Shown: in pieces, positions 13,807 to 47,171 of the stretch
Layout: the number at the start of each line of letters is the position of its first letter
Position numbering within the stretch: position 1 is the stretch's first letter
Position numbers and translations under genes: made by a program
Virus record (IMG/VR): IMGVR_UViG_3300032334_000488
Location: 1 to 64,000 of that record
Length of the DNA: 64,000 nucleotides
DNA from: a virus
Direction: 5' to 3' (one strand)
Notes under the pieces: generated by a model
What the model was told of the DNA's origin: nothing
The model's input: only the letters and a program-made list of their open reading frames with translations
Databases searched by the model: none

Positions 13807-14049
13807 ATGAGTGACTCATTATCATCGAGTCAGTTCTCTCCAGTAACGCCAGACATAACTACACCTTTATCATTAAGTAAAGCGACAACTGGAAGTGCTG
13901 CACAGGCAACTGCATGGCGTAACCGTTCTTTAGGAGAAGGTCGTCCTCTAGCATTGTCCTCCAAAACACAAGGCACTACTTTTAGTTGGGATGATTCGTC
14001 CTCTCAACCTTCTGTTCCACAAGCAGACAAGGGAATGGGTCGCAACTAA
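13807..14049 (+). CDS. Ser-rich protein with SLSSSQF tag
   Basis: ORF track; tag at residues 4-10. Confidence 0.65.
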   Translation: MSDSLSSSQFSPVTPDITTPLSLSKATTGSAAQATAWRNRSLGEGRPLALSSKTQGTTFSWDDSSSQPSVPQADKGMGRN

Positions 14050-14561
14050 TGGCTAGACAGCGTCCTGTAATTCGTTCTGAAAAACTTACTCGACCTGCTG
14101 GGGTTCACCCTGCGTTGAGTGCAGTCGAATTTGCAGCACGCACAAATGCTAAACCAATAAGTGATCGTGGACTTACGATGAACGTCCGTACTGGGGTTAC
14201 TACAGACGAACAACCAGCAACTGGTTATGCAGTTGGTGGAGAGCGTGATGTACAGGGTCGCCGTATTAACACTAAGAAAGTTAATACAGGAAGTAAAGAC
14301 CCTAAACTTAGTGCAAACGATGTTTCTAAATTTTCAGAAAAAGTACGCATGGGAACTAAGGATAAGAATGTAAACATTGGCTCATGGGTAGATCCAAGCA
14401 AGCCAAAGAGTGGCGTTCAACTGGATGCTTCTCGTGTCTACACAAACAAAAAAGAAGCCACAAAGAAGATGGAAGAACGTAAGGAGGACGCTATGTATAA
14501 CGTCCAGACTTACGAGAACGTTCCTAATCTTAAGAAAAAGCCAAAAGAAAAGAATCGATAA
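14049..14561 (+). CDS. basic hypothetical protein (ALSAVEF tag variant)
   Basis: ORF track; coupled to neighbours. Confidence 0.65.
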   Translation: MARQRPVIRSEKLTRPAGVHPALSAVEFAARTNAKPISDRGLTMNVRTGVTTDEQPATGYAVGGERDVQGRRINTKKVNTGSKDPKLSANDVSKFSEKVRMGTKDKNVNIGSWVDPSKPKSGVQLDASRVYTNKKEATKKMEERKEDAMYNVQTYENVPNLKKKPKEKNR

Positions 14562-15094
14562 TGGCTGGCGGATACAATAACTTTTCACCATCGCAGAACT
14601 GGCAATCGCTAGGTGGCGGTGGATTAAACGGCTATAACAATCAAGGTGGTGCAGGTACTCCTGTAGCACGTGACACTATGGATTCACTTCGTATTGGTGT
14701 CGGAAGAGTTCCATCTGCAGAATATCCTGACGGCTATTTAGGCACTATTCGCTCACGTCGTGATGACCGTTTGTTGGATAGCATCAAGAACCGTGTTAAC
14801 CAGAAGTCATACCAGCGAGGTGTACACAAAGGTGAGCGTATTGAGCCATCTATGTACTACTGGCCTGAAGAGTTCACTCCTGACATGGGTCTAGCCCGTC
14901 AGATGAAAGCAACTCTAGTTAACCGTGATGGTGCAGTGTCATACATGATGCCACGCAGTGCACCACAGACTCACCTTACTCCTGCTCCTCACCTCGTCAA
15001 TGATGGTAAAGCCAACACACAGGCTAATGAGCCAGGACAGATTGATGCACGCCGTCAAGCGATGCTTGCTTACTTGAGACCAGCGTGGTCATAA
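14561..15094 (+). CDS. hypothetical protein
   Basis: ORF track; AEYPDGYLGTIRSRRDDRLL. Confidence 0.7.
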   Translation: MAGGYNNFSPSQNWQSLGGGGLNGYNNQGGAGTPVARDTMDSLRIGVGRVPSAEYPDGYLGTIRSRRDDRLLDSIKNRVNQKSYQRGVHKGERIEPSMYYWPEEFTPDMGLARQMKATLVNRDGAVSYMMPRSAPQTHLTPAPHLVNDGKANTQANEPGQIDARRQAMLAYLRPAWS

Positions 15095-15095
15095 C

Positions 15096-15770
15096 ATGGC
15101 TAAATTTGGTGTAGACCCACATGGTCGCTGGGATAAGAACCTAGCAGAGTCTCAATTTAAGGGACATGTAGAAAACATTATTGGTAAGTACAAGCAGGCC
15201 CCAGAAGAGATGTTGAAGGGCGGTCATGAGTGGTACAGCAAAGCACATGATGTTGCACACACCATTGGTGGTGGAGACACTCGTAGAGGCGCAGGAATCA
15301 TCGCAGCATTGTCTCCATTAAGCACATGGGAAAAGAATGTTTCACAAGCACATGAACTGATTAAAACTGGCAATGTTCATAATGCCCTTCTTCCAGCAAA
15401 TGTTGAGAAGGCTCGTCGTATTCACCAAGGAGAAGACCCTGAGTCTGTTCTAGGTGGACACAAAGTAACTAACTTCTTCCACAATATTCATGATCCTAGT
15501 AGTGCAGAGCACGTAACTATTGACCGTCACGCATACGACATTGCGATGGGACATCCTTTTGTTGGCGCAGGTGGCGGTAAAGCAAAACGTAATATTACTG
15601 AAGGACCAAGTGGACACGTGCCTATGTCAGAAGACCTTGGGTTAAGTTCATTCGGTCGTTACAAGCACTTCGCACATGCATACAAGACTGCTGCTGGAGA
15701 ACTAGGTGTTGATTTGCCACACAAAGTTCAGGCAACTACTTGGGTTCAACATAGAGGTGCAATCGGATGA
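15096..15770 (+). CDS. HhH-GPD-like DNA glycosylase-fold protein (DUF7178-like) with NLAESQF tag
   Basis: G..WY, IAALSP...W..N, G.KV..F, VTIDRH, QA.TW. Confidence 0.65.
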   Translation: MAKFGVDPHGRWDKNLAESQFKGHVENIIGKYKQAPEEMLKGGHEWYSKAHDVAHTIGGGDTRRGAGIIAALSPLSTWEKNVSQAHELIKTGNVHNALLPANVEKARRIHQGEDPESVLGGHKVTNFFHNIHDPSSAEHVTIDRHAYDIAMGHPFVGAGGGKAKRNITEGPSGHVPMSEDLGLSSFGRYKHFAHAYKTAAGELGVDLPHKVQATTWVQHRGAIG

Positions 15771-16126
15771 CGCAACATGTTGACGGAGTTTATGATCACA
15801 CCAAACCATGGCGTGCACCAGTAAAGCCAGACCAGGTAGCAAAGCGTTACTCTTATCTTGGCCCATGGGCGTCTAACCAAGAGCGCCTAACACAACAGGC
15901 GTTGATGGTGATGAACATTCCTGGTGCAGATATCTCAGCAATGGTGCGTCCACCCCTGCCACAGATTCAACTGTTTCCAGATCGTTATGGATACGAGAGA
16001 AAACAACCTGGAATCGATGACATCGTAACTGTTGATCGTAACTACACAGAACCACGCATTTCTTGGTATTCTGGTGGAGTTGCTGGCTACCAAGCAGCAG
16101 AACGTAACGGATTGGGGACCAACTAA
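15767..16126 (+). CDS. hypothetical protein
   Basis: ORF track, overlapping start/stop. Confidence 0.6.
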   Translation: MTQHVDGVYDHTKPWRAPVKPDQVAKRYSYLGPWASNQERLTQQALMVMNIPGADISAMVRPPLPQIQLFPDRYGYERKQPGIDDIVTVDRNYTEPRISWYSGGVAGYQAAERNGLGTN

Positions 16127-16323
16127 TGGATGGTGATGGCATGATGTCCATGGAGTTGCAGGCTCGCCAAATTGCTGAGAACGCAACCCGTTACAACGGA
16201 TCTGCTCCATGTCCAACCTGTGGAGTAATCATGAACCCTGTAGAATTTATGGCAAATAGAGGTCATTGCCTCTCTTGCGTTACACAACGCAATGCTCAAC
16301 GAGTGAAAGGTAAGATGGCATAA
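16126..16323 (+). CDS. small zinc-finger protein
   Basis: CPTC...CLSC. Confidence 0.6.
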   Translation: MDGDGMMSMELQARQIAENATRYNGSAPCPTCGVIMNPVEFMANRGHCLSCVTQRNAQRVKGKMA

Positions 16324-16523
16324 TGACAGTTAACTCATCACGTTCAATGAATGCCTCATTAGACGAAGGCGCAACAGACGGCAAGTACCGTAAAGTTCGC
16401 CCAGATACAGAGGTAGGAACTGAGTCATCAGCAACTATCGCCAACCGTCAATCACTGCACCCATTCTATGGTTATGGATTTGCAACATCTGAGTATCCAA
16501 ACAAGGTAAACCCAGGTAAGTAA
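16323..16523 (+). CDS. hypothetical protein
   Basis: ORF track, coupled. Confidence 0.6.
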   Translation: MTVNSSRSMNASLDEGATDGKYRKVRPDTEVGTESSATIANRQSLHPFYGYGFATSEYPNKVNPGK

Positions 16524-16525
16524 TC

Positions 16526-16720
16526 ATGGAATTTAACGACCGCAGAAAGAACCCTCACACTCCCCTATCTAAGAGTGCGATGAAGACTTGGGAAAATGAA
16601 ACCGTTACAGGTAGAGACAACCCAAAATGGAAATGTGAAAGTTGCGGTAACAAAGGCGCACAAGATTACGCAGGTCAAGGCCGTGTATGCGAGTCTTGCG
16701 CTTCAAGTTTGGGGTTCTAA
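16526..16720 (+). CDS. small zinc-finger protein
   Basis: CESC...CESC. Confidence 0.6.
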   Translation: MEFNDRRKNPHTPLSKSAMKTWENETVTGRDNPKWKCESCGNKGAQDYAGQGRVCESCASSLGF

Positions 16721-16723
16721 AAA

Positions 16724-16948
16724 ATGCCTACACAGGTTCCTGATCGTGGAGAAAACCCACGTCGTAAAGTAAATTTTTACGATGCTAAAGGGGATTTTAG
16801 CCACAGTGCAGACATTCGTTGGTTAGCCCCTAAAGGCTACCGATCAGGTCGTCCCCATGGTTCAGAATTAAAGAAGCACATGAAGCCTATGGGCGGATGG
16901 GCATTGCCTGAATACGACAACAACCCAAAGGCACCTAAGGATAAATAA
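16724..16948 (+). CDS. hypothetical protein
   Basis: ORF track. Confidence 0.55.
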   Translation: MPTQVPDRGENPRRKVNFYDAKGDFSHSADIRWLAPKGYRSGRPHGSELKKHMKPMGGWALPEYDNNPKAPKDK

Positions 16949-16983
16949 TCTGTTAGGATAATCGGACTACTACAAGGAGCACA

Positions 16984-17532
16984 ATGAGTAACGTACCAAT
17001 TTTGGGTGAAAAGAAAAAAGACCAAGAACCGATGTTTCGGTTGCTTTATTGTCTTGTCTGCCAATCTCTAGATGAATTGCCACCCTATGATGGTGAGCCA
17101 GAGTTAGACCACCTCCTTGCTGTTGCATGTGAGGCACATGTATTCCCATCAGGAGAACCACACAAAGGTAAATTATTTGTGTTGCCACTTCGTGCATGGG
17201 CACACAACGAATCAAAGCGAGAGATCATTAGCCAGATCAAGGGCGGTGGATCAGCAGGTCTTGCCTCAATCGATGAGACCTTCTACGAATCTCGATCTAC
17301 TTTCATGGAAGATGCAATGAAGTGCTACAAGCAGCACAACAAACCAAAAGATGGATGTTCTGATTGGCACAAGAGCGATCTCATGCTCATTCCTAAGACT
17401 GAGAAAGACCGTATCAAAGAAGGTATGGGTAAGTATAAAGACACTCCAGGTCAGAAGACCTATCTCTGTGATTTCTGTCCAGTAGCGATTGGCGTTGCAG
17501 AGCGTAAACAGAAACTGTTAGGAATGAAATAA
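16984..17532 (+). CDS. Cys/His-rich hypothetical protein
   Basis: SD AAGGAG; CLVC, LCDFCP. Confidence 0.7.
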   Translation: MSNVPILGEKKKDQEPMFRLLYCLVCQSLDELPPYDGEPELDHLLAVACEAHVFPSGEPHKGKLFVLPLRAWAHNESKREIISQIKGGGSAGLASIDETFYESRSTFMEDAMKCYKQHNKPKDGCSDWHKSDLMLIPKTEKDRIKEGMGKYKDTPGQKTYLCDFCPVAIGVAERKQKLLGMK

Positions 17533-17807
17533 TGGAAGAACAGAAGATTCAAGCAGGGTTTAGTGTAACTATCAATGAGGATGGAACTCTATCGACCCAC
17601 GTGTTCCCAGCAAGCGATACAGTTGCACGACAAGCAACTACCTACGACATCTTTGGATGCTGCAAAGAACTAGTTGAAGACATTGAGTCACAACTACTTG
17701 CAGATCGTATCTCAAAGGCTGTTATTGCTAAGTTAATGCCTCCAACGCCAGAAGAAACGGCAAAAGTACGCATTGCTGAGGCTTTAGCAAACCGCCAAGC
17801 ACAATAA
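17532..17807 (+). CDS. hypothetical protein
   Basis: ORF track, coupled. Confidence 0.65.
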   Translation: MEEQKIQAGFSVTINEDGTLSTHVFPASDTVARQATTYDIFGCCKELVEDIESQLLADRISKAVIAKLMPPTPEETAKVRIAEALANRQAQ

Positions 17808-17824
17808 CCACATAAACTAGGAGC

Positions 17825-18763
17825 ATGAACCGCTCTGATGGATTAGACCGCTATGTTGGACCTGTATCCATACAGGCGCTACCAACATCGTACTTCTCCC
17901 AACCAGAAGAGTCTTTAGATCCTGAATTGTTCTCTGGAACAACTATCAGGGGTTGGGTTCGCAATGGAATCCTCCAGTTATTAAATGGTTTTCTTAATGA
18001 AACTTATCGTCATCCAGATTTATGGACACGAGTGTGGATAGCAGGATCTGCTGTCTCCTATCAATGGTCTGCTGCTCGTGAGCCAGGAGACCTTGATGTC
18101 TTGATCGGTGTTGACTATATTCAGTTCCGCAAGGCTCATCCAGAGTACAACGGACTTGGTGACACAGAGATTAGCAAGATGTTAAACGAAGATTTTCGTG
18201 CACATCTACAGCCAGATACCAAAGACTGGAATGGGTTTGAAGTAACTTTTTACGTTAATCCTGGCGCTACAGACATCCGCACTATCAATCCTTACGCTGC
18301 CTACGATTTAACCCATAACGATTGGACAGTCTTTCCACAAAAGCAATCTGCACCTCTAAACCCAATAGGTGAAAAGGCTGCACAACGTGATTTACAAAGC
18401 GCATCTGATGTGGTTATGCGTTATACCCAAGCACTAGCAGACTTACGTGGCGCACAGAATGACGCAGCACGACGTAACGCAGAGTTTAGAGTTCAACAAC
18501 TATTGATGCATGGTTCGATGTTATTCGAAGACATCCACTCAAGTCGTCGTTATGCTTTCAGCCCTAGTGGTGGTGGGTATGCTGACGTATACAACTACCG
18601 TTGGCAGGCTGGTAAGAAGTACGGAACAGTACCAGCGCTTCGACAGATGCACGATTACTGGAACGAGTACAAGAACAAGCAGGCACAAGAGACTTACGGA
18701 ATTGAACTACCAGACACACAGACACTAATCAGGAGAGCAGCAACTTACCGAACAAGGGACTAA
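17825..18763 (+). CDS. Pol-beta superfamily nucleotidyltransferase
   Basis: WIAGS...GDLDVLIGVD (hGS + DxD) and downstream FEVTFY. Confidence 0.78.
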   Translation: MNRSDGLDRYVGPVSIQALPTSYFSQPEESLDPELFSGTTIRGWVRNGILQLLNGFLNETYRHPDLWTRVWIAGSAVSYQWSAAREPGDLDVLIGVDYIQFRKAHPEYNGLGDTEISKMLNEDFRAHLQPDTKDWNGFEVTFYVNPGATDIRTINPYAAYDLTHNDWTVFPQKQSAPLNPIGEKAAQRDLQSASDVVMRYTQALADLRGAQNDAARRNAEFRVQQLLMHGSMLFEDIHSSRRYAFSPSGGGYADVYNYRWQAGKKYGTVPALRQMHDYWNEYKNKQAQETYGIELPDTQTLIRRAATYRTRD

Positions 18764-35327: not shown

Positions 35328-35613
35328 CCGCCTTTCTTACATAGTTTTGATGTTTTGATGTTGTAGTTGAGTATTTGCAGTTAGGCATAAACCAACCGCT
35401 ATTAGAATGCCAAGCGATTGGTGTTGAGTATGAGTACACAATAAAGTCAGGTCGATCTAACTCCAGTTGATCTCGAAACTCTTGTGGAAGTCTGCCGAAA
35501 TCGTAAGCGTATTCATTTGGCGCAATAACAACGCCGTAGAGATTGTTACCTGTGAATGCAACGCGATCAACGATTAGATCGCCAGCCTTTGTGTTTGATG
35601 TTCTAGTTGTCAT
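35320..35613 (-). CDS. phage early protein
   Basis: VYSYSTPIA...YSTTTSKHQ; SD GGAG. Confidence 0.7.
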   Translation of the reverse strand: MTTRTSNTKAGDLIVDRVAFTGNNLYGVVIAPNEYAYDFGRLPQEFRDQLELDRPDFIVYSYSTPIAWHSNSGWFMPNCKYSTTTSKHQNYVRKAVA

Positions 35614-35726
35614 TTAGTTTCTCCGTTACATAGTCGGCAGATAAGAGCAGGTTTGTCGTTTAGTTTTACGAACCATAGATCGGTTGAAGGTTTAGCGCAG
35701 ATAGCGCAGTCAAGAATGATTGACAT

Positions 35727-35900
35727 TTATTTCGCCACTTTTACAATGTCGAGTTGTTTGATGAAGTCGAGTGTGTAGTTATCTGATTTAGTTGAGTAGA
35801 AGCGAGTTCCGTCATTTAGTAGTAGATCGATAGCGATCTCTGTAATACGACCACGAGCAACGATGTTGCCCTTTGCATCTATGAATGTTTGTTGTTTCAT
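35727..35900 (-). CDS. small early protein (57 aa, not in ORF track)
   Basis: MKQQTFIDAKGNIVARGRITE...; coupled to upstream stop. Confidence 0.55.
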   Translation of the reverse strand: MKQQTFIDAKGNIVARGRITEIAIDLLLNDGTRFYSTKSDNYTLDFIKQLDIVKVAK

Positions 35901-36142
35901 TAGTTGTTGTCCAATCCTGTAGTCAAAGCCTTTTGCAGTTCTGCATTAAATACTCGTGTTGTAGGTGCTTCTCCATAAGGAGTGAAGTTTGTTGAGAGAT
36001 TGACACGAACGAATCCGTCTCTATAAAACTTGATTCGTTTTTTAGAACTTAGAAAACCTTCGTATGAATAAAGATACTTTCCTGTGTTGGTGTCATAGAA
36101 ATCCCAAACACCTGTTGTTCCAATTACTGTTTTGGTTGTCAT
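35900..36142 (-). CDS. first gene of leftward early operon, hypothetical
   Basis: ORF track. Confidence 0.6.
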   Translation of the reverse strand: MTTKTVIGTTGVWDFYDTNTGKYLYSYEGFLSSKKRIKFYRDGFVRVNLSTNFTPYGEAPTTRVFNAELQKALTTGLDNN

Positions 36143-36159
36143 TTTTTATTCCGTTTCCT

Positions 36160-36780
36160 TTTGTAGTTACTAGTGGAATTGAATACATCGAGTTATGTAT
36201 TCATAGCGATCGATCACCAAGATAGTTCGCTGACTATTTATGGTGATCGATCACTATTAACACATAAGCAGAAGTGCTGATCGTTGTTGTTGTAACTAGT
36301 TTCAATGTGCAATCGGTTGGATTGATTACCACCTGCACTCACTAGTAGAGACATTCCGTCACTAGTTACATGACGATCTCCACACTTCAATTTCCCTAAG
36401 CCCTACTGCTATTCACAATCAGTTTCTTGATCGTTAATCCGCGCCCTTGAAATACCGCTTGAATGTATTTACTAATTACATTCGCATCGCCGTAGCAAGC
36501 ATGATCGAATCGATTATTTATTTCGGTGTTATTGCATCGTATAGTCCGACCGCACACTTTCTGCCTTAGTAACTGATTACTAGTTGTAATCAATACCGAA
36601 TAAATAAATCGCAGTTTCTTAGTCACTATAAAAAATAAATAAATAAATTGATCGTCACCTAAGTACTGTCCCTAAGGAAATCTTTCGCAGGTTAGTTCAC
36701 CGATGTTTATTTATTATTTAATTATTGTTAAAGCCTGTTACCAGTTTTAACGATTCGCTTTTTTCACTTTGAATGATTCA
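36160..36780. other. AT-rich non-coding element with several long inverted repeats
   Basis: Hairpins 36193-36267, 36291-36370, 36511-36611, 36636-36715. Confidence 0.65.
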
Positions 36781-37128
36781 CCAATTTGCCCCTAGAGGAT
36801 TCTGAAATCGGTGGTCACACATCGAGTGCGCTACTAGGAGAATTGAACCACATCTGTACGACAAATTGGGACAGGCTGATAAGAGGGGTTTTTGGTGTCA
36901 CGCTCAAAAAATCCCACCCCACAGAATGGGCGCAGAAGAACGATCGCCCCATGAATAGGGTTCTTATTCCAGTATTGGGGGTAAAGCCCTGAGAGAGCCT
37001 ATAGAAGCCGTATAAGGGCTATTGAGCGTGAGGCTGATAGGGGCAGTTTGAGCGTGGGGTGTTGCGTGGGTCACACCTGCCGAAGTAACTGCCAAGATCG
37101 CTAGTTCCGCCAAGTAAGTCCGAGCAAA

Positions 37129-37150
37129 TAGTTGAAAGTTCAATTACATT
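37129..37150 (+). promoter_or_regulatory. palindromic operator-like site overlapping leaderless -10 (TACATT)
   Basis: TAGTTGAA-AG-TTCAATTA; -10 six nt before ATG 37157. Confidence 0.4.
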
Positions 37151-37156
37151 ACTCCG

Positions 37157-37534
37157 ATGCGAGAATGCCGAGAGTGCAGAGTTGAGAAGCCGTTAGATCG
37201 TTACGAGTTAACAGGTCATGGCTATCACCGAAAGATTTGCATGAGTTGCAGATCGTCACGAAAGCGAATAAAGAGATTGCCACGACAATTTGGAATCAGT
37301 TACCAAGAATTGTTAGTGATGAAAGAAGAACAAGATTACAAGTGTGCGATCTGTGGAATACATGAAGAGAACACAACAAAAAAGTTAGCGGTAGATCACG
37401 ATCACAAAACTAATCGAGTGCGTGGGTATCTGTGCAATAACTGCAACAGGGGAATTGGTTTATTGAAAGATGATGTAGAAGTGATGAAGAGAGCGATTGT
37501 TTATTTAGAGCGCAATTTATCGAATGATGTTTAG
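37157..37534 (+). CDS. endonuclease VII-family HNH nuclease
   Basis: Q..KCAIC...LAVDHDH...VRGYLC..CN.GIG. Confidence 0.88.
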   Translation: MRECRECRVEKPLDRYELTGHGYHRKICMSCRSSRKRIKRLPRQFGISYQELLVMKEEQDYKCAICGIHEENTTKKLAVDHDHKTNRVRGYLCNNCNRGIGLLKDDVEVMKRAIVYLERNLSNDV

Positions 37535-37570
37535 CCTGTATTCGGGGGTAATCGGGGGTATAAATAACCT

Positions 37571-38020
37571 ATGAAAATCTGCATAGTTTGTGAGAAAGAG
37601 TTGCCTCTTAGTAAGTTCGAGATGAACGGAAACACCCGAAGGAATCAATGCGTATCTTGTAGGTTTCAACAAAAAAAGAATCGCCCTTCTTATGATTCCG
37701 TAATAAAGCCTAAAATCAAGAATTATCGATTGAAGCAATACGGAATAACTATTGAGGATTACAACGAGATGTTAAGTAAACAGAACGGCGTGTGCGCTAT
37801 CTGTAAAACTAATCCGTATCCTGATAAAAAGTTCTGTGTAGATCACGATCACAATACAGGCGTAGTTCGTGGGTTGTTGTGCGATTTATGCAATAGAGGT
37901 ATCGGGTTGATGCGTGATGATGTCGTAATCCTAGCGTCTGCTATTGATTATTTAACGCCCCTCTTTTCTCAGAAGGAAGGGGTCACAGGGGAAACCTCGT
38001 TTCCCCTGATAAAAGAATAA
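37571..38020 (+). CDS. endonuclease VII-family HNH nuclease
   Basis: YGIT..Y...Q.GVCAIC...VDHDH.TG.VRGLLC..CN.GIG. Confidence 0.9.
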   Translation: MKICIVCEKELPLSKFEMNGNTRRNQCVSCRFQQKKNRPSYDSVIKPKIKNYRLKQYGITIEDYNEMLSKQNGVCAICKTNPYPDKKFCVDHDHNTGVVRGLLCDLCNRGIGLMRDDVVILASAIDYLTPLFSQKEGVTGETSFPLIKE

Positions 38021-38103
38021 GTTGTTTATGACCAAAGTATTTAAGAGAGAATAGAGAGATAGATACATTGATTGGTTACTAGATTGCTTGCTGGTATTAA
38101 GTG

Positions 38104-38389
38104 TTGGTACAACCTGATAATAGAGATCACTATCTGATTCACATAGCAACAGGTAACTAACTATGTGATGAAAAGGTACATTTGAAATAGTTAGTTAACT
38201 ACCTGATAACAAGTGGCTGAGATGACTGACAGGCTGGTGGTATGCACACAGGCAATCTGTTTCAGAATGCAGTAGCCGAAGCGATCACGATGTCATGTCA
38301 CCAAAATTGTCACCAAACTATTGGTACAACCTGATAACAAAGCGTGTGTTAACAACATCGCACCTGATTAGTAGTCAGGTGATGATGTG
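38104..38389. repeat. non-coding direct/inverted repeats with ACCTGAT(A/T)A core
   Basis: ttggtacaacctgataa at 38104 and 38321; acctgataacaa at 38201; tgtcaccaaa x2; cacctga...tcaggtg hairpin. Confidence 0.75.
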
Positions 38390-38914
38390 AACATTGTAAA
38401 AAATAAATTGACCCCCCCACCATTAACGCAAACACACACGATGAGCGGCCAGGTCGGAGCCATGATTGAGGGGTTTAGGCTGAGGCAGTAGCCAAAATGA
38501 GCAATAATCGGCCACATGAGCGAAATTCAGCCCCTATCTATGGCTTCTGAGCCTTGTTGCAGCACAAATTGCCCTTGTAAAGAGGAAAATGATGACAAAT
38601 AGTCAAAATTTGTCGGCATCACAGTTTGGCAACACGGTAAGTGTGGCCAAGGCGTGAATATCGCCTTCATCATCGTTGCAATTGTCGTTGTTGGAGTTGC
38701 ATTGTGGGCATCAGAGCAGTAATCTAGTTCTACGACTGGTAGGCGAGCACGACTTAACTTCCAAAAGTGTAGGGGACTGTCGTGAGTCCACCTACGGCCA
38801 GTTGTCAGCCAAATCCCTGCACTGCTAAATGCAGGGCTTTGTGCTGTAAAGAGCCCCCTAAAATTTTTTCTCAGTAACAACTCAAGGCAGTAGCCTTAAT
38901 GCAACAATACTCAC

Positions 38915-39289
38915 ATGAGCAAGAGTGAATTCAACCAAGGTCATAGCCCAATGTGCCCAGAGTTAGGGTGCAGCAAGCCAGCAGATAGCCACATCCACCT
39001 CAGTCGTGAGGATGTCGACTCTATGCGTGGTATGGCACAGGCAGGCAAGATGGCTGCCGAGGTCGACACTCACATGAGAACTGCTCCAACAGACACCCGT
39101 GACCATGCCGCATTGAAGGCACACATGCTCTCTTCTGGCCATTACGCCCATCCGATGGATGTGCACGAGATGACTCACGAGACATTGAAGGCCTATCACG
39201 ATGAAGATCACGCCAATATGGATGCAGGTCCAGCAGATGAGCGTGAGAATTACACAAACTTCGGCCACGAGCATATGCATAACGCATGA
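38915..39289 (+). CDS. His-rich hypothetical protein
   Basis: ORF track; begins MSKSEF. Confidence 0.65.
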   Translation: MSKSEFNQGHSPMCPELGCSKPADSHIHLSREDVDSMRGMAQAGKMAAEVDTHMRTAPTDTRDHAALKAHMLSSGHYAHPMDVHEMTHETLKAYHDEDHANMDAGPADERENYTNFGHEHMHNA

Positions 39290-39663
39290 AGAATCCAAAG
39301 CCACATACCACGCTAGTATCTGGTTCTCAGTTCCAGGGCTTCCTTACATCATCAGCAGCGGGTGTGAACACGCCATCACGCACAGGTGAGGGTACAGAGC
39401 CTCGCCCAGGTATGAGCAAGCGTGATCACCGCAACATTATCGCCACAGAGTTAAACAACCATCCAAAGAAGATCGGCATGAGTATGTTTGTTGCAGGACT
39501 CACTCACATGGGTGTACAGCCTAACGAGGCTAACCTAGGTCACATCTCTGGATTAGTCAGAGGTGACAATGACAAATTTCATGAATTAGTCGGCCTTGCA
39601 AGAAAGACAGCAATCGGTGCAAAGCAGCGCAAGGTAGAGAAGAATCGTGGTATTCAAAAATGA
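39286..39663 (+). CDS. hypothetical protein with LVSGSQF tag variant
   Basis: ORF track, ATGA coupling. Confidence 0.65.
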   Translation: MKNPKPHTTLVSGSQFQGFLTSSAAGVNTPSRTGEGTEPRPGMSKRDHRNIIATELNNHPKKIGMSMFVAGLTHMGVQPNEANLGHISGLVRGDNDKFHELVGLARKTAIGAKQRKVEKNRGIQK

Positions 39664-40154
39664 AGCCACCAAAAGACTTAGGCAAGGCGATCGAGGCTGG
39701 CTATCAGCCTATGTTCATGACAGGTGAAGAGATCAAGACTCACTTCGCACCTCTTGAGGGTGATAAGAAGATAGTTAAACTCCCACCCAACGAGAGAGCA
39801 AATCGCTACGATCACGGTGAGCGCAAAGAGACTGATGATGAACTATGGGCTCGCAAGTTAAAGGAATCTAAGCAGACAGGATTAGAGCGCCACGGAGAGA
39901 TCTCTTTTGCATTTGGAGAGCCACAGAAGTACGGAATCTCACGTGAAAGCACTCTTGCAGATAAAGCCAAGAAGTCTGGCATGCCTGGAGCGATCCACGT
40001 AGCAGATAAGCCAGGATACCCATCAGACAAGCCGCAGATACTAGGTGGTCACCACCGTGTTGCATTATCGTCAGAGCAGTTCAAGGAGCACATCTTCCCT
40101 GTTAAGTATGCGAAGAATCTTGACGAGGCTAAGGCAGATCCAGGGTACCGATGA
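39660..40154 (+). CDS. ParB/Srx-like domain protein
   Basis: AIHV...QILGGHHRVAL. Confidence 0.6.
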   Translation: MKPPKDLGKAIEAGYQPMFMTGEEIKTHFAPLEGDKKIVKLPPNERANRYDHGERKETDDELWARKLKESKQTGLERHGEISFAFGEPQKYGISRESTLADKAKKSGMPGAIHVADKPGYPSDKPQILGGHHRVALSSEQFKEHIFPVKYAKNLDEAKADPGYR

Positions 40155-40312
40155 AGTGCAAGCACATCTACGAGGTAGTCGGGGCCGTCTTCTGCCCACA
40201 TTGCGGTTCTAGCACTCACGAAGTGGACTGGGCCGATGTCAATGAACAGCATCGCGCCTGGAAAGAATTTATCATTGATAATCCACAAGAGTTAACTTGG
40301 TGGAGCATATGA
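40151..40312 (+). CDS. small zinc-finger protein (53 aa)
   Basis: MKCKH...CPHCG; ATGA overlaps at both ends. Confidence 0.6.
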   Translation: MKCKHIYEVVGAVFCPHCGSSTHEVDWADVNEQHRAWKEFIIDNPQELTWWSI

Positions 40313-40521
40313 GTCGTTCAGCAGAGTTTGAGTCATCCCACATCGCAGCACGAGAAATCGCCCCAGGTGATTATCTCGATCCATCAGTAAAGGTACGTGT
40401 ACATGCGGCCAAGATGATTGGTAATGACTTCGTCGTAGCACATAAGTTACGTGGCTCTAAGTCACCTGGCGTGTCTATGTATAAGCCAGATGACAAGGTG
40501 AGAGTGTGGCGCAAGAAGTGA
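40309..40521 (+). CDS. small hypothetical protein
   Basis: MSRSAEF...AREIAPGD. Confidence 0.6.
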   Translation: MSRSAEFESSHIAAREIAPGDYLDPSVKVRVHAAKMIGNDFVVAHKLRGSKSPGVSMYKPDDKVRVWRKK

Positions 40522-40841
40522 GCAACCTCAATCCTCAGCAGTTTGTATCTCTGACCCATCACGAGGGCAGGTACCTCCATCATATTGACGCACATGACCA
40601 AGATGGCAACATGGTCGGATCTATGGATTGGAACAAGAGATCCAAGAGAGTGATGAACATCAGCGTCAGCACACGACTTCGTCGTCAAGGTATTGCAAGC
40701 CACATGTGGGATCTAGCAAATCAAACCGCCCAAGAAAAAGGTCAAGTAGGACCTCAACACTCCTACGAGAGAACTGACCTAGGAGATGCATGGGCAAAAT
40801 CCGTAGGTGGACGTCTTCCACACAATAGGATGAAAAAATGA
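40518..40841 (+). CDS. GNAT acetyltransferase with NLNPQQF tag
   Basis: motif A V....RRQGIAS; HS..RT..G.AW. Confidence 0.85.
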   Translation: MSNLNPQQFVSLTHHEGRYLHHIDAHDQDGNMVGSMDWNKRSKRVMNISVSTRLRRQGIASHMWDLANQTAQEKGQVGPQHSYERTDLGDAWAKSVGGRLPHNRMKK

Positions 40842-41203
40842 GCAACCTATCTCCTAAGCAGTTTCCAGAGTTGTTCCACGGATCTACCGCAGAGACGATG
40901 AAGCCTGGAACAATAATCCGCCCAGGTAATGATCGTGTCGTATGGGCAGGAACTAATCCAGAGCGTGCAGCAGACCATGTCATTGATCGTATGAATACAG
41001 GTTACCGAGGACGAGATAATAAAAAGGGATGGCATCAGCAGTCTCTGGTATCACCTGTCTATGAAGTCGAGCCATTAAAGACTGACAAGACACTGACAGA
41101 TATGTCTTGGTGGAGTAAAGACTCTATAACCTCTGATAAGGGCTTCAGAGTAAAGGGCGTCAAGCGCTACGTTACTCTTGGAGAGAAGATGAGTAACGAA
41201 TGA
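40838..41203 (+). CDS. ADP-ribosyltransferase-like protein (Arr-like) with NLSPKQF tag
   Basis: LFHGS...PG..I.P, VWA.T....A, VYEVEP. Confidence 0.7.
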   Translation: MSNLSPKQFPELFHGSTAETMKPGTIIRPGNDRVVWAGTNPERAADHVIDRMNTGYRGRDNKKGWHQQSLVSPVYEVEPLKTDKTLTDMSWWSKDSITSDKGFRVKGVKRYVTLGEKMSNE

Positions 41204-41297: not shown

Positions 41298-41630
41298 ATG
41301 ACAGTGCCGAAGAATCTTAACAATGCACAGTTTGCACTCTCTAGCGAGATAGGTCATCACGCAATCACCGCTCACATCGATAGTGAGCCAGTAGGTCGTA
41401 TGACATGGGCGAAAGCAACAGGCAAGATCGGTAAGGTCTATGTCAAGCCTGAACATCGCCGCAAAGGTGTAGCGACATCAATGTTTCATGCCGCCAAAGA
41501 TATGGCCAGAGAACAAGGTCTACAAGAGCCATCACACTCTCAATCACGCAGTGATGCGGGAGAAGGTTGGGTACAATCGTTAGGTGAGCAAGCACCTGCT
41601 CGTGTATCTGACAGGGAGTACTACCGATGA
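41298..41630 (+). CDS. GNAT acetyltransferase with NLNNAQF tag
   Basis: VYVKPEHRRKGVAT; HS..RS..G..W. Confidence 0.88.
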   Translation: MTVPKNLNNAQFALSSEIGHHAITAHIDSEPVGRMTWAKATGKIGKVYVKPEHRRKGVATSMFHAAKDMAREQGLQEPSHSQSRSDAGEGWVQSLGEQAPARVSDREYYR

Positions 41631-41884
41631 CTCTAAGCAACGATCAATTCGGTGACGTCCCTAAGACCAAGTGGGTACCTGACCAAGAGGGTCACTCAAT
41701 CGGATGGCATATCCTCAAGTGGCACATACCACGAGGCAACAAAGCAGGAAAATCATTCGGCGGTGATGGCGTCTCGTCATACGACTACGAGCAGCACCAC
41801 AAGATGCACATGCGTATGCATGAAGACGGAAAATTCGAGGTCGGGCACGAGCATGAGCATTTCACACCAAAGGATCGCAAATGA
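41627..41884 (+). CDS. His-rich protein with TLSNDQF tag
   Basis: WHILKWH...HHKMHMRMH. Confidence 0.6.
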   Translation: MTLSNDQFGDVPKTKWVPDQEGHSIGWHILKWHIPRGNKAGKSFGGDGVSSYDYEQHHKMHMRMHEDGKFEVGHEHEHFTPKDRK

Positions 41885-42264
41885 AGCAGACGCCTAGAGA
41901 GCCAGATCACGACCCTAAAGAACCAAGAAATCTGTCGGGCGTTCAGTTTAAGTTCATTCACGCTGGTGCACCTAAGCAGCACCCTAAGATTCACACTATG
42001 TATGCAAATGACTCAGAGGGTAGATACCTAGGTCATCTTGACTGGAATAAGCGAACTGGTCAGATTGACAACATCAACGTGATCGGGCGCATGCAAGGTC
42101 TTGGTGTTGCAACATCAATGTACGAGAAGGCAACCAAACTTGCATCTGACACTGGTATCAAATCGCCACAGCATTCAACCTTCCGCACCGACAAGGGCGA
42201 TGCGTGGGCACGCAAGGTCGGTGGCAACGTACCGCCTCGTAAGGCAGAGCCAGAAGAAGAATAA
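41881..42264 (+). CDS. GNAT acetyltransferase with NLSGVQF tag
   Basis: INV...MQGLGVAT; HS..RT..G.AW. Confidence 0.85.
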   Translation: MKQTPREPDHDPKEPRNLSGVQFKFIHAGAPKQHPKIHTMYANDSEGRYLGHLDWNKRTGQIDNINVIGRMQGLGVATSMYEKATKLASDTGIKSPQHSTFRTDKGDAWARKVGGNVPPRKAEPEEE

Positions 42265-43458: not shown

Positions 43459-43949
43459 TTGTTCATCTATCTAAAGAAGAAGTTCGTGCATGTGCAGACA
43501 TTGCATTAAACCGATGGATGATGAAGTTCGGCAGTATTGACCGACCTAACTATGCAGGCGACAATAAGAAGTACCTAGAGCCAGAGATTGCGGCAAATGT
43601 ACGAACTATCGTTGCAGAGTATGCAGTTGCTAAGTTATACAAGCAGCCCTTTACATTTCCGTTTTATACCAATGAGGAACATTATTTCAGAAAAGACTTT
43701 CCTGATGTAATGCCATGCTATGAGGTCAAATCAATTCGCACCAAAGATGCGATCCCATTATTTCCTAAGGATGTCAGACCAGGGGTGATTCTGGTAGGGG
43801 CACGGGTTCTAGACCGTGATTACTATTCAGAGGTCGAGGTTTATGGCTGGCTTCCTACTGAAGAGTGCACCAAGGACGAGTATCATTATGCTCCAGAGAA
43901 TTCCTGGCGAATTCCTCTCGACAAGTTTAACGACACTATTCCAGGCTAG
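43455..43949 (+). CDS. PD-(D/E)XK-like hypothetical nuclease
   Basis: AEYAVAK...PDV...EVKS. Confidence 0.5.
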   Translation: MIVHLSKEEVRACADIALNRWMMKFGSIDRPNYAGDNKKYLEPEIAANVRTIVAEYAVAKLYKQPFTFPFYTNEEHYFRKDFPDVMPCYEVKSIRTKDAIPLFPKDVRPGVILVGARVLDRDYYSEVEVYGWLPTEECTKDEYHYAPENSWRIPLDKFNDTIPG

Positions 43950-43956
43950 GAGAACC

Positions 43957-44700
43957 ATGGCTGACAAAGGCACAGCAGCAGCAATCATCGAAGTTGCTCG
44001 TAAAGAAGTAGGGACTATTGAAGGTCCAAAAGATAATGAGACCAAGTACGGCGCCTTCACCAAGGCTAACTACCTAGCATGGTGTGGCTCATTCGTTATG
44101 TGGTGCGCTCATCAAGCAGGTGTAAAGGTTCCTAACACAGTTTCTACTGTTGCAGGAGCAGCGGCGTTTAAGAAGATGGGCACATGGTTTGACGCAGACT
44201 GCGGTCAATCACCACAACCAGGAGATATTCTGTATTTTGATTTCCCAGGAGACGGCGTCGATAGAATTTCTCACGTAGGTATCTGCACAGGTATTGACTC
44301 TGATGGTGTTGTCAACACTATCGAGGGCAATACATCTGGCAAGAAGAAGGGCGACCAGCGCAATGGTGGCGAGGTATGCGAGCAGACTCGTGGCTATAAG
44401 CCAAACAAGAAGAAGGTTCTTGTCTCAATCGTTGGTTGGGGTCGTCCTAACTACTCAGGCAACGAAGTCCAGGCTGAGATCCCTATGCCAGAGGCCCCAG
44501 CGTTCCCTGGACAGATCAAGCCAGGTGCCAAGGGAGAATCTGTCAAGATTGTCCAGAAGGCTCTAGGATTGGCTGCAGACGGCGATTACGGCCCAGCGAC
44601 AAAGAAGGCAGTTGTTGCATTCCAGGATAACCACGATATTGTTGACTCAAACGGCATCGTTGGCCCTAAGACTTGGGCAGAATTGGTCAAAATGCTCTAA
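43957..44700 (+). CDS. endolysin: CHAP amidase + peptidoglycan-binding domain
   Basis: WCGSFV, PQPGD, HVGI, TIEGNT; DGDYGP.T...FQ...GIVGPKTW. Confidence 0.92.
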   Translation: MADKGTAAAIIEVARKEVGTIEGPKDNETKYGAFTKANYLAWCGSFVMWCAHQAGVKVPNTVSTVAGAAAFKKMGTWFDADCGQSPQPGDILYFDFPGDGVDRISHVGICTGIDSDGVVNTIEGNTSGKKKGDQRNGGEVCEQTRGYKPNKKKVLVSIVGWGRPNYSGNEVQAEIPMPEAPAFPGQIKPGAKGESVKIVQKALGLAADGDYGPATKKAVVAFQDNHDIVDSNGIVGPKTWAELVKML

Positions 44701-44768: not shown

Positions 44769-45344
44769 ATGACAACGATTGCTGCCATTCAGGGAGACGG
44801 TTGGGTTGTAATGGGAGCCGATTCACAGGGCACCTACAACGAGTACCGTAATGTCTTTATGAAAGACCACAAGGTAATTGATAACAACGGAATCTTAATC
44901 GCTGGTTGCGGCATAGGTCGAGGTATGAATCTCCTACAACGTGGATGGAAAGCACCAAAGCCACGTGTTGGAATGACAGATGATCAGTTAGACACATGGA
45001 TGATAAAGACCTTCATCCCTGGAATGCGCCAAGTCTTTGTTGATGGCGGTTATGACATGAAGGATGACGGAGATTACGCACAGTTTGAGAACGTCTTCCT
45101 TGTAGCAGTTCAAGGAACCCTATACATTATTGATGAGGACTACTCACTAGATCGTGATGCTCGAAACTACTTCGCTACTGGAAGTGGCGGAGACTTTGCC
45201 CAAGGCTCTCTTTACAGTGCTGGAAACAAGATCTTTACAGACATTGAACTGGCTAAGAAGGCTATGACTACTGCCGTTAATGCAGCCAAAGAGTTTGACA
45301 CCAACTCTGGCGGAGAGACCCGTATCTACGTTCAAGAGTTCTAA
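44769..45344 (+). CDS. proteasome-beta/HslV-like Ntn threonine protease
   Basis: N-terminal MTT, ADSQ, K, ATGSGG..A.G, D..SGG. Confidence 0.85.
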   Translation: MTTIAAIQGDGWVVMGADSQGTYNEYRNVFMKDHKVIDNNGILIAGCGIGRGMNLLQRGWKAPKPRVGMTDDQLDTWMIKTFIPGMRQVFVDGGYDMKDDGDYAQFENVFLVAVQGTLYIIDEDYSLDRDARNYFATGSGGDFAQGSLYSAGNKIFTDIELAKKAMTTAVNAAKEFDTNSGGETRIYVQEF

Positions 45345-45726: not shown

Positions 45727-45765
45727 TAATAGGACTTAAATCCTGAGGGGGAATCGAGACAGGTT

Positions 45766-46101
45766 ATGTTCATGAAGAGTCTAAACAATGTGTTGATGCG
45801 TATTGTTGCGGTATTTGCAGCAAGCGGTCTTGGTGTTATTGGTGCTGGTGCAATCGCTGGTATCTCAACTATCAAGGCTGTAACAGTCGCAGGTCTCACA
45901 GCAGTTGCAGCAGTTGTAGAAAAGTTGGCCCGTGCTTTTATGGACGATGGAAAACTAACTCTCGACGAAATCAACGCAGCATTCTCAAGCGTTGACAAGG
46001 GTGCAAAGACTGTGGCAGATGTAGAAGTTGAAGAACGTCAAGCAGCAGACAAAGCAGCAAAGGCTGCACCTGCTAAAGAAGACGATCCAAACTACAACTA
46101 G
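45766..46101 (+). CDS. holin-like membrane protein
   Basis: two hydrophobic helices, charged C-terminus. Confidence 0.5.
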   Translation: MFMKSLNNVLMRIVAVFAASGLGVIGAGAIAGISTIKAVTVAGLTAVAAVVEKLARAFMDDGKLTLDEINAAFSSVDKGAKTVADVEVEERQAADKAAKAAPAKEDDPNYN

Positions 46102-46274
46102 TCTCTAGTTGAGTAGAAGCCTCCACCTTTGAAGGAGAGGCCGAAAGAATTAAAGACACGCTGAAGAGCGTAGCCGCACTTGTCGCAGTGATAACCAGGA
46201 TCTGCCTCAGTGATGCTACGCTCTTTTTCGTAATCTAAATCGCACTGAATGCATGAGTACTCGTATCTAGGCAT
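46098..46274 (-). CDS. FmdB-family zinc-ribbon protein
   Basis: MPRYEYSC..C...C.KCG...FKG.GFYSTRD. Confidence 0.8.
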   Translation of the reverse strand: MPRYEYSCIQCDLDYEKERSITEADPGYHCDKCGYALQRVFNSFGLSFKGGGFYSTRD

Positions 46275-46436
46275 TAATCTTCTCCGTCTATGTGGTCGTT
46301 TTCGCAATCTCTTGCAAGAGTCATTACTACGTATCGTTTGCCGCATATACTACAAGAAAACTTTGCAATGTAGGCGGCATCATCCATCCCGCTATTATGT
46401 CCTTACACGGAGAGATAAAGGGGGCAAAATAGGATC

Positions 46437-46604
46437 ATGAACGGAAACCTGTCAACAAACCAGTTCTCTAGCATTACTGAGAGCAAGCAGGCTATGCCAG
46501 AAACTACAAGATTTGATGGCCCAGGAGGACTAGAGCCAAAATCAGGCGATAATTTTTCTCAAAATAAAAGCATCTCAATTCCTAAACCAGGATTTAGCGG
46601 ATGA
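46437..46604 (+). CDS. 55 aa protein with NLSTNQF tag (not in ORF track)
   Basis: MNGNLSTNQFSSITESKQAMPETTRFDGPGG...; stop overlaps next ATG. Confidence 0.65.
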   Translation: MNGNLSTNQFSSITESKQAMPETTRFDGPGGLEPKSGDNFSQNKSISIPKPGFSG

Positions 46605-46801
46605 CAACCACCACTACACACGATCCGCTTTCTGCACTTGATCGTTGTGATAAGTGCGGAGCGCAAGCATTGGTACGAGCAACCCTTGCAAATGGTGAAC
46701 TCTATTTCTGTGGACATCATGGTCGAGAGATGAGTAGCAAGTTGGTTGCGTCTGCTTTAGTTGTTTACGATCCAGAAGGCGTCTTTAATTATGGAAGATA
46801 G
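46601..46801 (+). CDS. small zinc-finger protein
   Basis: DRCDKCGAQA...L.FCGHH. Confidence 0.75.
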   Translation: MTTTTTHDPLSALDRCDKCGAQALVRATLANGELYFCGHHGREMSSKLVASALVVYDPEGVFNYGR

Positions 46802-47171
46802 ATATGAAACTGGTAAAGGACTCTTTGGTGGTCCTGGTGGTACTTACGGTCGTTACTCTGTGGGAAGTCGTGTTACGGCGCAAGGAAAGAATCTAAGAAA
46901 TCTTTCTACACAATTTGGTAATGCAGAAGATATCGAAGAACAACAGCGTCGTCGATTTGGTCGTCGTCATGAGTCTGGTTATTCAGGTGCAGGATTTTGG
47001 TTTTGGAACTATCCAAACATGGTAGGTGCAATCGGTGCAGGAACTGATCCACACGAAACTGGAAAAGATCAAGATCAACCAATGAGTGGTTCAAGTGATG
47101 CAGCATCTGCAACTAGTGGTGCAGGTAACGGTGGAACTGCTGCAGGTTTTATCGGAGGTTTGGGTACGTGA
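46761..47171 (+). CDS. Gly-rich hypothetical protein (internal NLSTQF)
   Basis: ORF track; true start probably MEDRY. Confidence 0.55.
   Translation: MFTIQKASLIMEDRYETGKGLFGGPGGTYGRYSVGSRVTAQGKNLRNLSTQFGNAEDIEEQQRRRFGRRHESGYSGAGFWFWNYPNMVGAIGAGTDPHETGKDQDQPMSGSSDAASATSGAGNGGTAAGFIGGLGT

Follow-up and report, generated by a model that had tools for sequence, protein, structure and literature searches.

The 64,000-nucleotide stretch of virus DNA analysed here (the window) comprises the first 64 kb of an 87,211-bp virus contig, IMG/VR record IMGVR_UViG_3300032334_000488, which the database rates as linear and approximately 87 % complete. Small proteins encoded between positions 13807 and 47171 share a seven-residue tag close to the N-terminus, with the consensus (D/x)-N-L-S-x-x-Q-F, in which the Gln is at times replaced by Leu or Glu. 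This tag, the proteins that bear it and the component that may read it are the subject of this report. A crude call yielded 155 open reading frames (ORFs). The region from 0 to 23 kb is a + strand block containing replication and recombination genes, while that from 23.4 to 36.6 kb is a − strand block of small genes. A second + strand block, starting at 37.2 kb, carries small accessory genes and the genes for an endolysin, an HslV-family peptidase, terminase, portal, scaffold, major capsid protein (MCP) and tail.

The window genes described below as bearing the tag or a variant of it lie on the + strand, as do the peptidase and head genes, and tag scores are given in bits of the position matrix introduced further on. 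An earlier sequence-only reading of this DNA had listed eight strong tag copies and a number of variants, and all of them were found at the coordinates it gave. The first bearer (13807–14049) is an 80-aa low-complexity protein with SLSSSQF at residues 4–10 (nt 13816–13836; 26.1 bits). Its family has 16 distinct members in relatives, where the tag takes forms such as PLSSSQF, PLSNSQF and ALSSSQF, and no orthologue was found in Streptomyces phage LuckySocke. The gene at 15096–15770 encodes a 224-aa DUF7178 protein (PF23802, E 9.5e-45, match beginning at residue 17), the tag of which, NLAESQF, occupies residues 15–21 on an N-terminal extension (27.3 bits) and recurs in the form NLA[EQ]xQF among 17 distinct relatives. 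The sequence-only reading labelled this protein 'glycosylase fold', and some depositors name DUF7178 homologues glycosylase. A PDB sequence search with this protein gave no match, and a search for longer homologues returned no fused forms, which is weak evidence against them.

Between 40518 and 42264, three GNATs and one ADP-ribosyltransferase (ART) are interleaved. The first gene (40518–40841) encodes a 107-aa mini-GNAT with NLNPQQF at residues 3–9, the match of which to Pfam Acetyltransf_10 (E 6.8e-5, 23.3 bits) falls just under the cut-off of 23.6. The second mini-GNAT (41298–41630; 110 aa; NLNNAQF, residues 6–12) passes the cut-off for Acetyltransf_1 (E 9.1e-8, 32.8 bits vs 20.7). The third (41881–42264; 127 aa; NLSGVQF, residues 17–23, behind a 16-residue Pro/Asp-rich leader) was assigned by family alignment and has GNAT scores of 16.5–16.6 bits, below the Pfam cut-offs. 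The three proteins align as one family with an invariant C-terminal P-x-H-S...G-x-x-W. They are without the usual N-terminal GNAT part, the Pfam matches beginning at profile positions 30–40. A candidate Arr-like ART of 121 aa (40838–41203; NLSPKQF, residues 3–9; 30.1 bits) has no Pfam or PHROG match and was recognized by a Foldseek search with its model, as described below. The support for the labels 'GNAT' and 'ART' attached by the sequence-only reading is weak to moderate. One protein passes its Pfam cut-off, and the other three score below the cut-off or have no family match. An 85-aa His-rich protein (41627–41884) carries TLSNDQF, which fits the strict pattern, at residues 2–8. It likewise has no Pfam or PHROG match, and eight members of its family occur in relatives, mostly with NLNNAQF. 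A 55-aa disordered-looking peptide (46437–46604) has the strict NLSTNQF at residues 4–10 and belongs to a family of eight members that occupy the same slot in relatives with NLSMAQF, NLSKQQF, NLSKGQF and NLSQSQF. One further strict copy, missing from the earlier list, lies in a 22-codon ORF, MMTNSQ-NLSASQF-GNTVSVAKA (38589–38657), which may be what remains of a cassette or may act as a free peptide. In none of the tagged proteins of the window was more than one domain recognised.

The variants listed by the sequence-only reading are present, but several are weak, with SKSEF, SRSAEF, LVSGSQF and ALSAVEF reaching at most 1.4 bits where scored. ALSAVEF is found at residues 22–28 of a 170-aa protein (14049–14561; matrix score −0.4). 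The slot of this gene holds tagged genes in relatives (ILSDAQF, VLSDAQF, MLSNEQF), which gave no tblastn match with it and are its counterparts by position. Three island genes carry the other weak forms: a 124-aa protein (38915–39289) with MSKSEF, which has no Pfam or PHROG match and whose orthologue in the relative G001 begins MSRGEEF; a 125-aa protein (39286–39663) with TLVSGSQF (1.4 bits), in which Leu lies one residue farther from QF, as in the TLVSGAQF of the G001 orthologue; and a 74-aa protein (40297–40521) with MSRSAEF (start at 40309) and no Pfam match. In the 164-aa island protein at 39660–40154, also without a Pfam or PHROG match, ALSSEQF (16.9 bits) occurs at about residue 137. This look-alike is kept after a GGHHR motif as ALSAEQF and SLAAEQF in G001 and G005, and is probably a helix start inside the fold; the G001 orthologue additionally bears an N-terminal NNLSSQQW. 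Inside the 136-aa protein at 46761–47171 lies NLSTQF, a doubtful relative of the tag, as its spacing is shorter by one residue. Its counterpart in G005 may be a protein with NLSRKQF some 20 residues in, although tblastn with the 46761 ORF gave no G005 match.

A six-frame translation scanned with the strict pattern, [NST]L[SN]..QF, gave eight hits in the window (13816, 38607, 40524, 40844, 41313, 41630, 41929 and 46446), all on the + strand and 5–29 residues past the preceding stop. The whole 87,211-bp genome gave the same eight hits and none in addition; NLAESQF at 15138 misses the pattern by having A where S or N is required. When the elements of the pattern were permuted (n=1200, span 7), the mean number of matches was 0.63 and the observed order gave the maximum, eight, followed by a permutation with seven matches that is an overlapping form of the tag pattern. 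Seven of the eight hits lie at most 30 residues from a stop and are followed by at least 30 open codons (background 0.151, binomial p 1.3e-5); the eighth is the 22-codon ORF at 38589–38657, which is nearly the tag alone. When all four-residue gapped patterns were tallied without bias over residues 1–28 of the 152 called ORFs used, the top-ranked N-terminal pattern was 'NL...QF', being present in six proteins with 0 occurrences elsewhere, and it likewise ranked first in the relative G002. A position matrix applied to the 155 ORFs scored eight N-terminal sites at 19–30 bits and one internal site at 16.9, with the rest at or below 7.6. There is circularity in the top scores, since tags of this kind served to train the matrix, and the informative part is the score gap together with the absence of the tag elsewhere. 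The same scan bore out the claim that replication and early-block proteins are untagged, and extended it to structural ones.

The claim of a protein-level signal also held, since the Leu and Ser/Asn codons vary between copies at the nine tag sites compared. This variation excludes a DNA-level cause such as a promoter, a ribosome site or an RNA element, and the codon comparison shows that the tag is selected at the amino-acid level.

Sequence related to the window was found on freshwater and lake metagenome contigs from three studies, while the phage collection contained no near-identical DNA. The MCP is 61–62 % identical to those of the Streptomyces phages LuckySocke, Alone3, BRock and GiJojo (62 % for LuckySocke), which are myoviruses of ~113–116 kb. 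Two ORFs look WhiB-like by eye (9592–9933 and 28008–28283), and the LuckySocke counterpart of the former is annotated WhiB. Because of the WhiB-like ORFs, the kinship with LuckySocke and the lake-metagenome relatives, the host is probably a freshwater actinobacterium, and the clade carrying the tag, myoviruses of ~87–100 kb, probably infects freshwater Actinobacteria.

IMG/VR scans with the ART-like and DUF7178 proteins yielded 48 loci. In each of the eight loci around the ART (L004–L011), a somewhat relaxed pattern was matched 4–9 times. Almost all of these matches open small ORFs of the + strand, and many of the bodies behind these tags are absent from the window. Five complete relatives with terminal repeats (G001–G005; 95–100 kb), with the same gene order as the window, keep tags on orthologous genes, with the variants PLSSSQF, MLSNEQF, ILSDAQF, NISDQQF, MISQQQF, NLSSQQW and DNLSxxLF. 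The more distant LuckySocke gave 0 strict hits, and the tagged families are without detectable orthologues there although flanking genes are present. A look-alike at LuckySocke position 98423 belongs with the loose look-alikes inside folds and was not counted. A different kind of shared N-terminus was seen in the same phage (L001), where four tail-fibre/tailspike-type genes (4096–5931, 35189–37645, 37654–38607 and 38617–39354) have W-[DG]-x-P-L-N-x-A-L in common at residues 13–24, probably a baseplate-attachment module.

The bodies behind the tag are diverse, in agreement with the earlier claim of unrelated bearers. BLAST sorted 122 distinct tagged bodies into 28 clusters, 14 of which have at least two members. 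They include the mini-GNATs, DUF7178, the 80-aa low-complexity family, ARTs of Arr-like type that start with [LFY][FY]HG[ST], the 85-aa His-rich family, the 55-aa peptide, a peptide of 36–39 aa and several others. A second set, with an [FY]RGL...HW[ST] start, is putatively ART-like. A cluster of 314-aa proteins with NLTDYQF looks like a fold-intrinsic helix start and is not to be counted. Paralogy alone was rejected as the cause of the shared tag, the 28 clusters being unlinked by BLAST of the bodies. Some clusters may be remote kin, for instance the ART clusters, of which there are three, and a GNAT-like cluster as a fourth. The truly different kinds of bearer are therefore fewer, at least about eight; by BLAST the tag is shown to occur on at least a dozen unlinked families. 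Few or no orthologues of the island genes (38.9–43.2 kb) exist in G002–G005, in which the flanks are conserved. The tag is concentrated in this hypervariable island adjoining the lysis genes, with three more bearers 25 kb off.

How the cassettes differ between relatives indicates what moves with the tag. Six cassettes (from L004, L007, L008 and L009, and the more distant L011) have their first 18 bases in common, either ATGAGCGCCCAAGATAAT or a sequence very close to it. Their DNA diverges from the Leu codon onwards, while L-S/N-x-x-Q-F is kept before three kinds of body. Because the DNA diverges and the motif is kept, each cassette has its own copy of the tag, held by selection and not by a conserved flank. 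On other lake-sample contigs, the joints 40507→40828 (two runs) and 40524→40844 (one run) excise the first GNAT cassette exactly, from the start of its tag to the start of the tag of the next gene. On another lake contig the body of the 46437 peptide is replaced from just ahead of the tag, and a contig from a different lake sample, with a loose end at 46444, carries a further codon variant of this tag. These alignments show that the tag travels with each cassette. The modular organization proposed by the sequence-only reading is borne out, as different bodies follow the same leader and cassette-sized joints occur in other samples.

The same joints favour, up to a point, an explanation in which the tag has no common reader and is a generic helix start that aids folding or expression and is spread by cassette recombination at gene starts. 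The breakpoints of the cassette deletions lie at tag starts, with 5–6 shared letters. On the other hand, the DNA of the tag differs between cassettes and offers little homology for recombination, the shared part being the 18 bases before it. The structural half of this explanation depends on how the tag relates to the folds that follow it.

The sequence-only reading held that the tag precedes the catalytic domain and named, as a refuting finding, that the motif is simply part of each fold. Homologues, alignments and models agree in placing the tag outside the folds. In isolated phages, alignments with DUF7178 homologues begin at residue 21 or later, past the end of the tag, in 33 of the 40 homologues listed, and the most distant homologues begin at the first core helix and are without the extension. 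The tag residues L, Q and F are invariant in the ART and GNAT family alignments (L4, Q8 and F9 in the 14 members of the 40518 GNAT family), while the stretch between tag and core contains insertions of up to ~20–30 columns, i.e. a linker of variable length. In the AlphaFold2 model of the 40518 GNAT (predicted local distance difference test score, pLDDT, 85.4), residues 1–5 score below 50, residues 6–9 form one helical turn and the first strand spans residues 11–16. The model of the 40838 ART (pLDDT 65.9) has the tag as coil and its first strand at residues 12–15. The three top PDB matches of the latter model in Foldseek are Arr, i.e. rifampin ADP-ribosyltransferases (E 0.0075–0.017, probability 0.99–1.0), and the later matches include Tpt1/KptA, pertussis S1, RES and ParT chains, all of ART type. 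Of the H-G-[ST] and Tyr sought in this family, H14, G15 and Y75 are invariant in nine sequences. Alignments and predicted models together show that the tag is located outside the folded domains, to which it is joined by a linker of variable length.

Helix motif classes of the capping-box kind and of the hydrophobic-staple kind are among those described in PMC4429112, and L-[S/N]-x-x-[Q/E]-F would map onto a capping box at a helix N-terminus, in which a Ser/Thr/Asn cap is followed, at the third position after it, by an acid or an amide, with the two hydrophobic-staple residues on either side. This mapping agrees with the single turn in the GNAT model. Because the form of the tag is that of a generic capping box, loose look-alikes inside folds are expected and are not to be counted. 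Two internal examples, LSSEQF (40065) and LSAPQF (55965), have the look of generic helix starts. In G001, a divergent DUF7178 paralogue (48280–49083; L054) is without a tag at the N-terminus but bears NLSRPQF (19.7 bits) at a distance of 20 residues from the C-terminus. It was considered as a case of a tag that had moved and, striking as the likeness is, was set aside, since the motif aligns with the family's own last helix and is probably fold-intrinsic. The capping-box form with two hydrophobic flanks, the turn at P6–F9 of the GNAT model and these look-alikes (40065, 55965, the C-terminal helix of the G001 paralogue and the 314-aa NLTDYQF family) are what a generic helix start without a reader would lead one to expect. 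However, the strict form, which is the top N-terminal pattern, is restricted to the N-termini of one accessory set, and the conserved Asn before Leu and the preference for Gln over Glu are not needed by generic caps. The tag is also kept on disordered peptides that have no fold to cap (the 13807 and 46437 families), while untagged homologues fold without it. The strict N-terminal form is more than a generic cap, and a purely structural or recombinational origin is disfavoured because the tag is specific, is also borne by disordered peptides and has divergent DNA; we consider a tag without any reader rather improbable. The tag is instead very likely a portable docking peptide with a common reader, to which Leu and Phe are probably presented together as one small knob.

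A search with the ART-family profile against 1.84 billion representatives returned 578 proteins at E<=1e-3, the best 150 of which were examined. Among these 150, 128 are no longer than 300 aa, and 76 of the 128 carry the tag, mostly as MSAQDNLSxxQF or ...NLSxQLFHGT; judging from these sequences, the tag is common in metagenomes, at least on the ART family. The other 22 are 446–3995 aa in length, have several Arr-like domains and are all untagged (0/22). Pfam Arr-ms was found in four of the four giants scanned, three of which add GNAT and variously NUDIX, 2H/LigT and SprT-like domains, while the fourth (P0131) has Arr-ms only. Giants such as P0122, P0124, P0126, P0127 and P0131 are 1000–4000 aa long with 2–7 Arr-like ART domains. 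In many of the printed stretches, a [KR]-T-A-[AS]-like motif, which may be a domain junction or processing site, lies ~6–10 residues upstream of the ART YHGT. A tblastn search with a giant ART/GNAT protein found no phage record and only partial plasmid matches, and no taxa came from a look-up of the protein clusters. The IMG/VR locus L079 (161,740 bp) has tandem giant ORFs of 2510 and 2805 aa at 1917–17836. The second contains Arr-ms, GNAT and 2H; neither the first nor any of eight neighbouring ORFs matched a Pfam or PHROG family.

One rival reading is that the tag serves to export or release toxins directed against eukaryotic grazers. PMC6802176 includes a report of 24 freshwater phages with a VIP2-like ART, proposed as a 'Trojan horse' that kills protists ingesting infected cells, and this published idea on freshwater actinophage ARTs is what speaks for such a signal. 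The closest structural matches of the 40838 ART are, however, Arr and Tpt1 and not VIP2. Further, neither hydrophobic nor twin-arginine features of a signal are seen in the tag, it is carried by GNATs, DUF7178 and short peptides and not by ARTs alone, and no translocation component was seen. The YRGL/FRGL start of some cassettes may be that of toxin-type ARTs and would then also speak for such a signal. Altogether, an export function seems highly improbable.

A reader located in the capsid or procapsid, the proposal of the sequence-only reading, is the best single explanation, though we would place it somewhat short of probable. The tag would be a portable N-terminal address peptide on small accessory or effector proteins, folding as a single self-capped helical turn in which Leu and Phe flank the Ser/Asn cap, so that a small hydrophobic knob is presented to one common receptor. 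That receptor would lie inside the assembling procapsid, tagged enzymes and peptides being loaded into the head late in infection and entering the next host with the DNA, as do T4 Alt and the internal proteins by way of their capsid targeting sequence. ART and GNAT domains that are joined in one giant polyvalent protein by other elements would thereby be carried by the phage as mini-cargoes, each with an address of its own. The T4 precedent, the effector repertoire and the location of the island, directly upstream of the lysis and head genes and in the same orientation, suggest such a reader, for which the scaffold-like protein and the MCP (58772–59554 and 59594–60721; best tag scores 1.9 and 5.6 bits) are candidate receptors. 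The head module also includes the portal gene (56913–58652) and genes for two small proteins (56200–56595 and 56665–56913). The fullest form of the idea is still more tentative: a self-capped, seven-residue plug-and-play label for the interior of an HK97-fold head without a prohead protease might, as a viral equivalent of the cargo peptides of encapsulins, equip the phage with a dozen exchangeable mini-cargoes that are injected before expression begins.

A number of results weigh against loading into the head. The matrix scan found no motif in the portal, scaffold or capsid proteins. The 87 %-complete genome has no match at E<=1 to prohead proteases of T4 type (PF03420) or HK97 type (PF04586) and none to the MuF domain (PF04233), the head-module proteins match no protease family, and the Prp peptidase (PF04327) has no match in the phage either. 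As there is no prohead protease or Prp match, a T4-style cleavage step is left without a candidate other than the HslV-type peptidase. DUF7178 homologues in other phages sit among non-structural genes. None of the eight neighbours of the L079 giants has a PHROG match, so that they provide no delivery context, and the likeness of the island to the giants in split form, while it is the strongest circumstantial support for a delivery role, is an analogy and not a test. Finally, the island follows on the divergent intergenic region (~36.6–37.2 kb) as the first block of genes, a position that suits early as well as late genes.

This position is a frequent place of early takeover genes, and it accords with an alternative in which the tag docks enzymes and inhibitory peptides on one host hub (RNA polymerase, the ribosome or a chaperone) with no packaging involved. 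Most bearers are either short disordered peptides or enzymes that modify proteins or nucleic acids, and the tag-only ORF at 38589–38657 could serve as a competitor peptide. The core of the motif is constant across phages whose other proteins are 30–90 % identical, as a conserved pocket predicts, and LuckySocke, which has no tag, infects a different host (Streptomyces). The bacterial clamp-binding pentapeptide has Q before hydrophobic residues, and the tag is unlike it in this respect. Docking on a host hub leaves unexplained, however, why the same domains are fused without a tag in the giant polyvalent-type proteins, and we judge it unlikely.

A second reader could be encoded by the phage itself. 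The HslV-family (Ntn; N-terminal nucleophile) peptidase gene at 44769–45344, the product of which starts MTT, matches phrog_1040 (E 3.6e-25) and lies downstream of the endolysin gene (43816–44700; CHAP and PG_binding domains), between the island and the tagged 55-aa peptide. The tag may be the recognition site of this peptidase, which would trim, degrade or possibly ligate the tagged proteins and so time their activation or removal. The family is present in all six tag-bearing genomes (that of the window and G001–G005) and absent from the tag-free LuckySocke, and in 13 of 14 sources its gene lies 1.5–5.2 kb from the nearest tag, the 14th being G003, where tblastn missed the HslV gene. These genomes are, however, relatives with conserved gene order, so that the linkage amounts to one evolutionary observation. 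The window allele is only 31–34 % identical to those of L004–L011, whereas the neighbouring endolysin is 87–95 % identical, and yet the tag is the same. Because this allele is closer to that of the more distant G005 (63–64 % identity) than to those of L004–L011, the gene seems to have been swapped between lineages. HslV-family genes also occur in 17 unrelated phage records, and one such phage of Actinomycetia, DSL-LC01, a metagenome assembly according to the title of PMC10611076, has the gene but no tag of at least 12 bits in the 40 kb examined. Moreover, several bearers have Pro after QF (QFPELFHGS, QFPYT), which is unfavourable to cleavage directly after Phe, and no HslU-like unfoldase was identified. 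Recognition by the peptidase, though a genuine alternative, appears rather improbable.

Promoter scans were of no help with the timing of expression. A scan for sigma-70-like promoters gave 19 sites against a shuffle mean of 27.1, i.e. fewer than chance. The word ACAACATCG (GCAACATCG at 56123) lies in five intergenic stretches before + strand genes (114, 13029, 38352, 53464 and 56123); with one mismatch allowed it has 37 matches in the window against 16 expected, and it is conserved in G001 only at the site upstream of the small gene preceding terminase. The ORF at 47433–50057 (874 aa), the product of which begins like a signal peptide (MRPLRLFATLFLTTVLYLLG...) and matches no Pfam or PHROG family, is kept at 58–66 % identity in G001, G002 and G004.

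The literature found on capsid targeting and freshwater actinophage ARTs contains no description of this tag, being confined to T4-type work and the 'Trojan horse' idea, and no paper was found under the name DUF7178. The tag is more widespread than the sequence-only reading had stated, and its interpretation as an address for cargo is plausible. If the reader is indeed in the capsid, the tag would provide a direct list of candidate injected effectors in abundant uncultured freshwater phages, and the shuffling of effector sets would be explained by cassettes that bear their own label. Such a label would also be very short and testable for the loading of foreign proteins into capsids, and through it the solo effectors of phages would be connected with the giant polyvalent proteins. 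Were the reader the HslV-type peptidase or a host hub, the tag would still mark a co-regulated effector set and represent a new short linear motif system in phages. To our knowledge, there is little evidence from outside T4 and its relatives on how proteins are chosen for the phage head.

Of the known systems, the capsid targeting sequence of T4 is the one to which the sequence-only reading had likened the tag. PMC9026906 describes these sequences as short N-terminal peptides on unrelated, poorly conserved internal proteins, mentions the packaged ART Alt, and presents the T4 tag as transferable in principle. The analogy fits in that a short N-terminal peptide is common to otherwise unrelated small proteins (as in IPI, IPII and IPIII), the cargo is poorly conserved between related phages while the leader stays, an ART is among the cargo, and the tag is likewise portable. 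It fails at the prohead protease, as no gp21-type enzyme and no sign of a cleavage consensus were found here, and the tag may lie up to 23 residues from the start of the protein. Nor is the phage a T4 relative; the match of its capsid protein points to a BRock-like actinophage-type myovirus.

If the capsid reading holds, there is also a likeness to encapsulins, in which a short terminal peptide on unrelated cargo is read by the inner face of an HK97-fold shell. The cargo-loading peptides of encapsulins are mostly C-terminal and differ in sequence from the tag. In staphylococcal phage 80alpha, the L27/Prp cleavage motif on the N-termini of capsid and scaffold proteins contains N-L and Q-F or F-F, but its spacing differs from that of the tag, and the capsid and scaffold proteins here are untagged. 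Prp/L27-type cleavage was excluded on this ground together with the lack of a PF04327 match in the phage; Prp is not known from the host Actinobacteria.

In gene content there is a resemblance to the polyvalent proteins discussed by Iyer et al. 2017 (PMC5512222), in which ART occurs beside GNAT and which are predicted to be packaged and delivered with the DNA. As in those proteins, an Arr-like ART is found here next to GNATs, and the metagenomic giants add NUDIX, 2H and SprT-like domains to the same pair. Unlike them, the phage described here has one domain per gene, in genes of 36–224 codons, each with its own tag. By analogy, the island looks like the effector set of the giants in split form, with each piece labelled.

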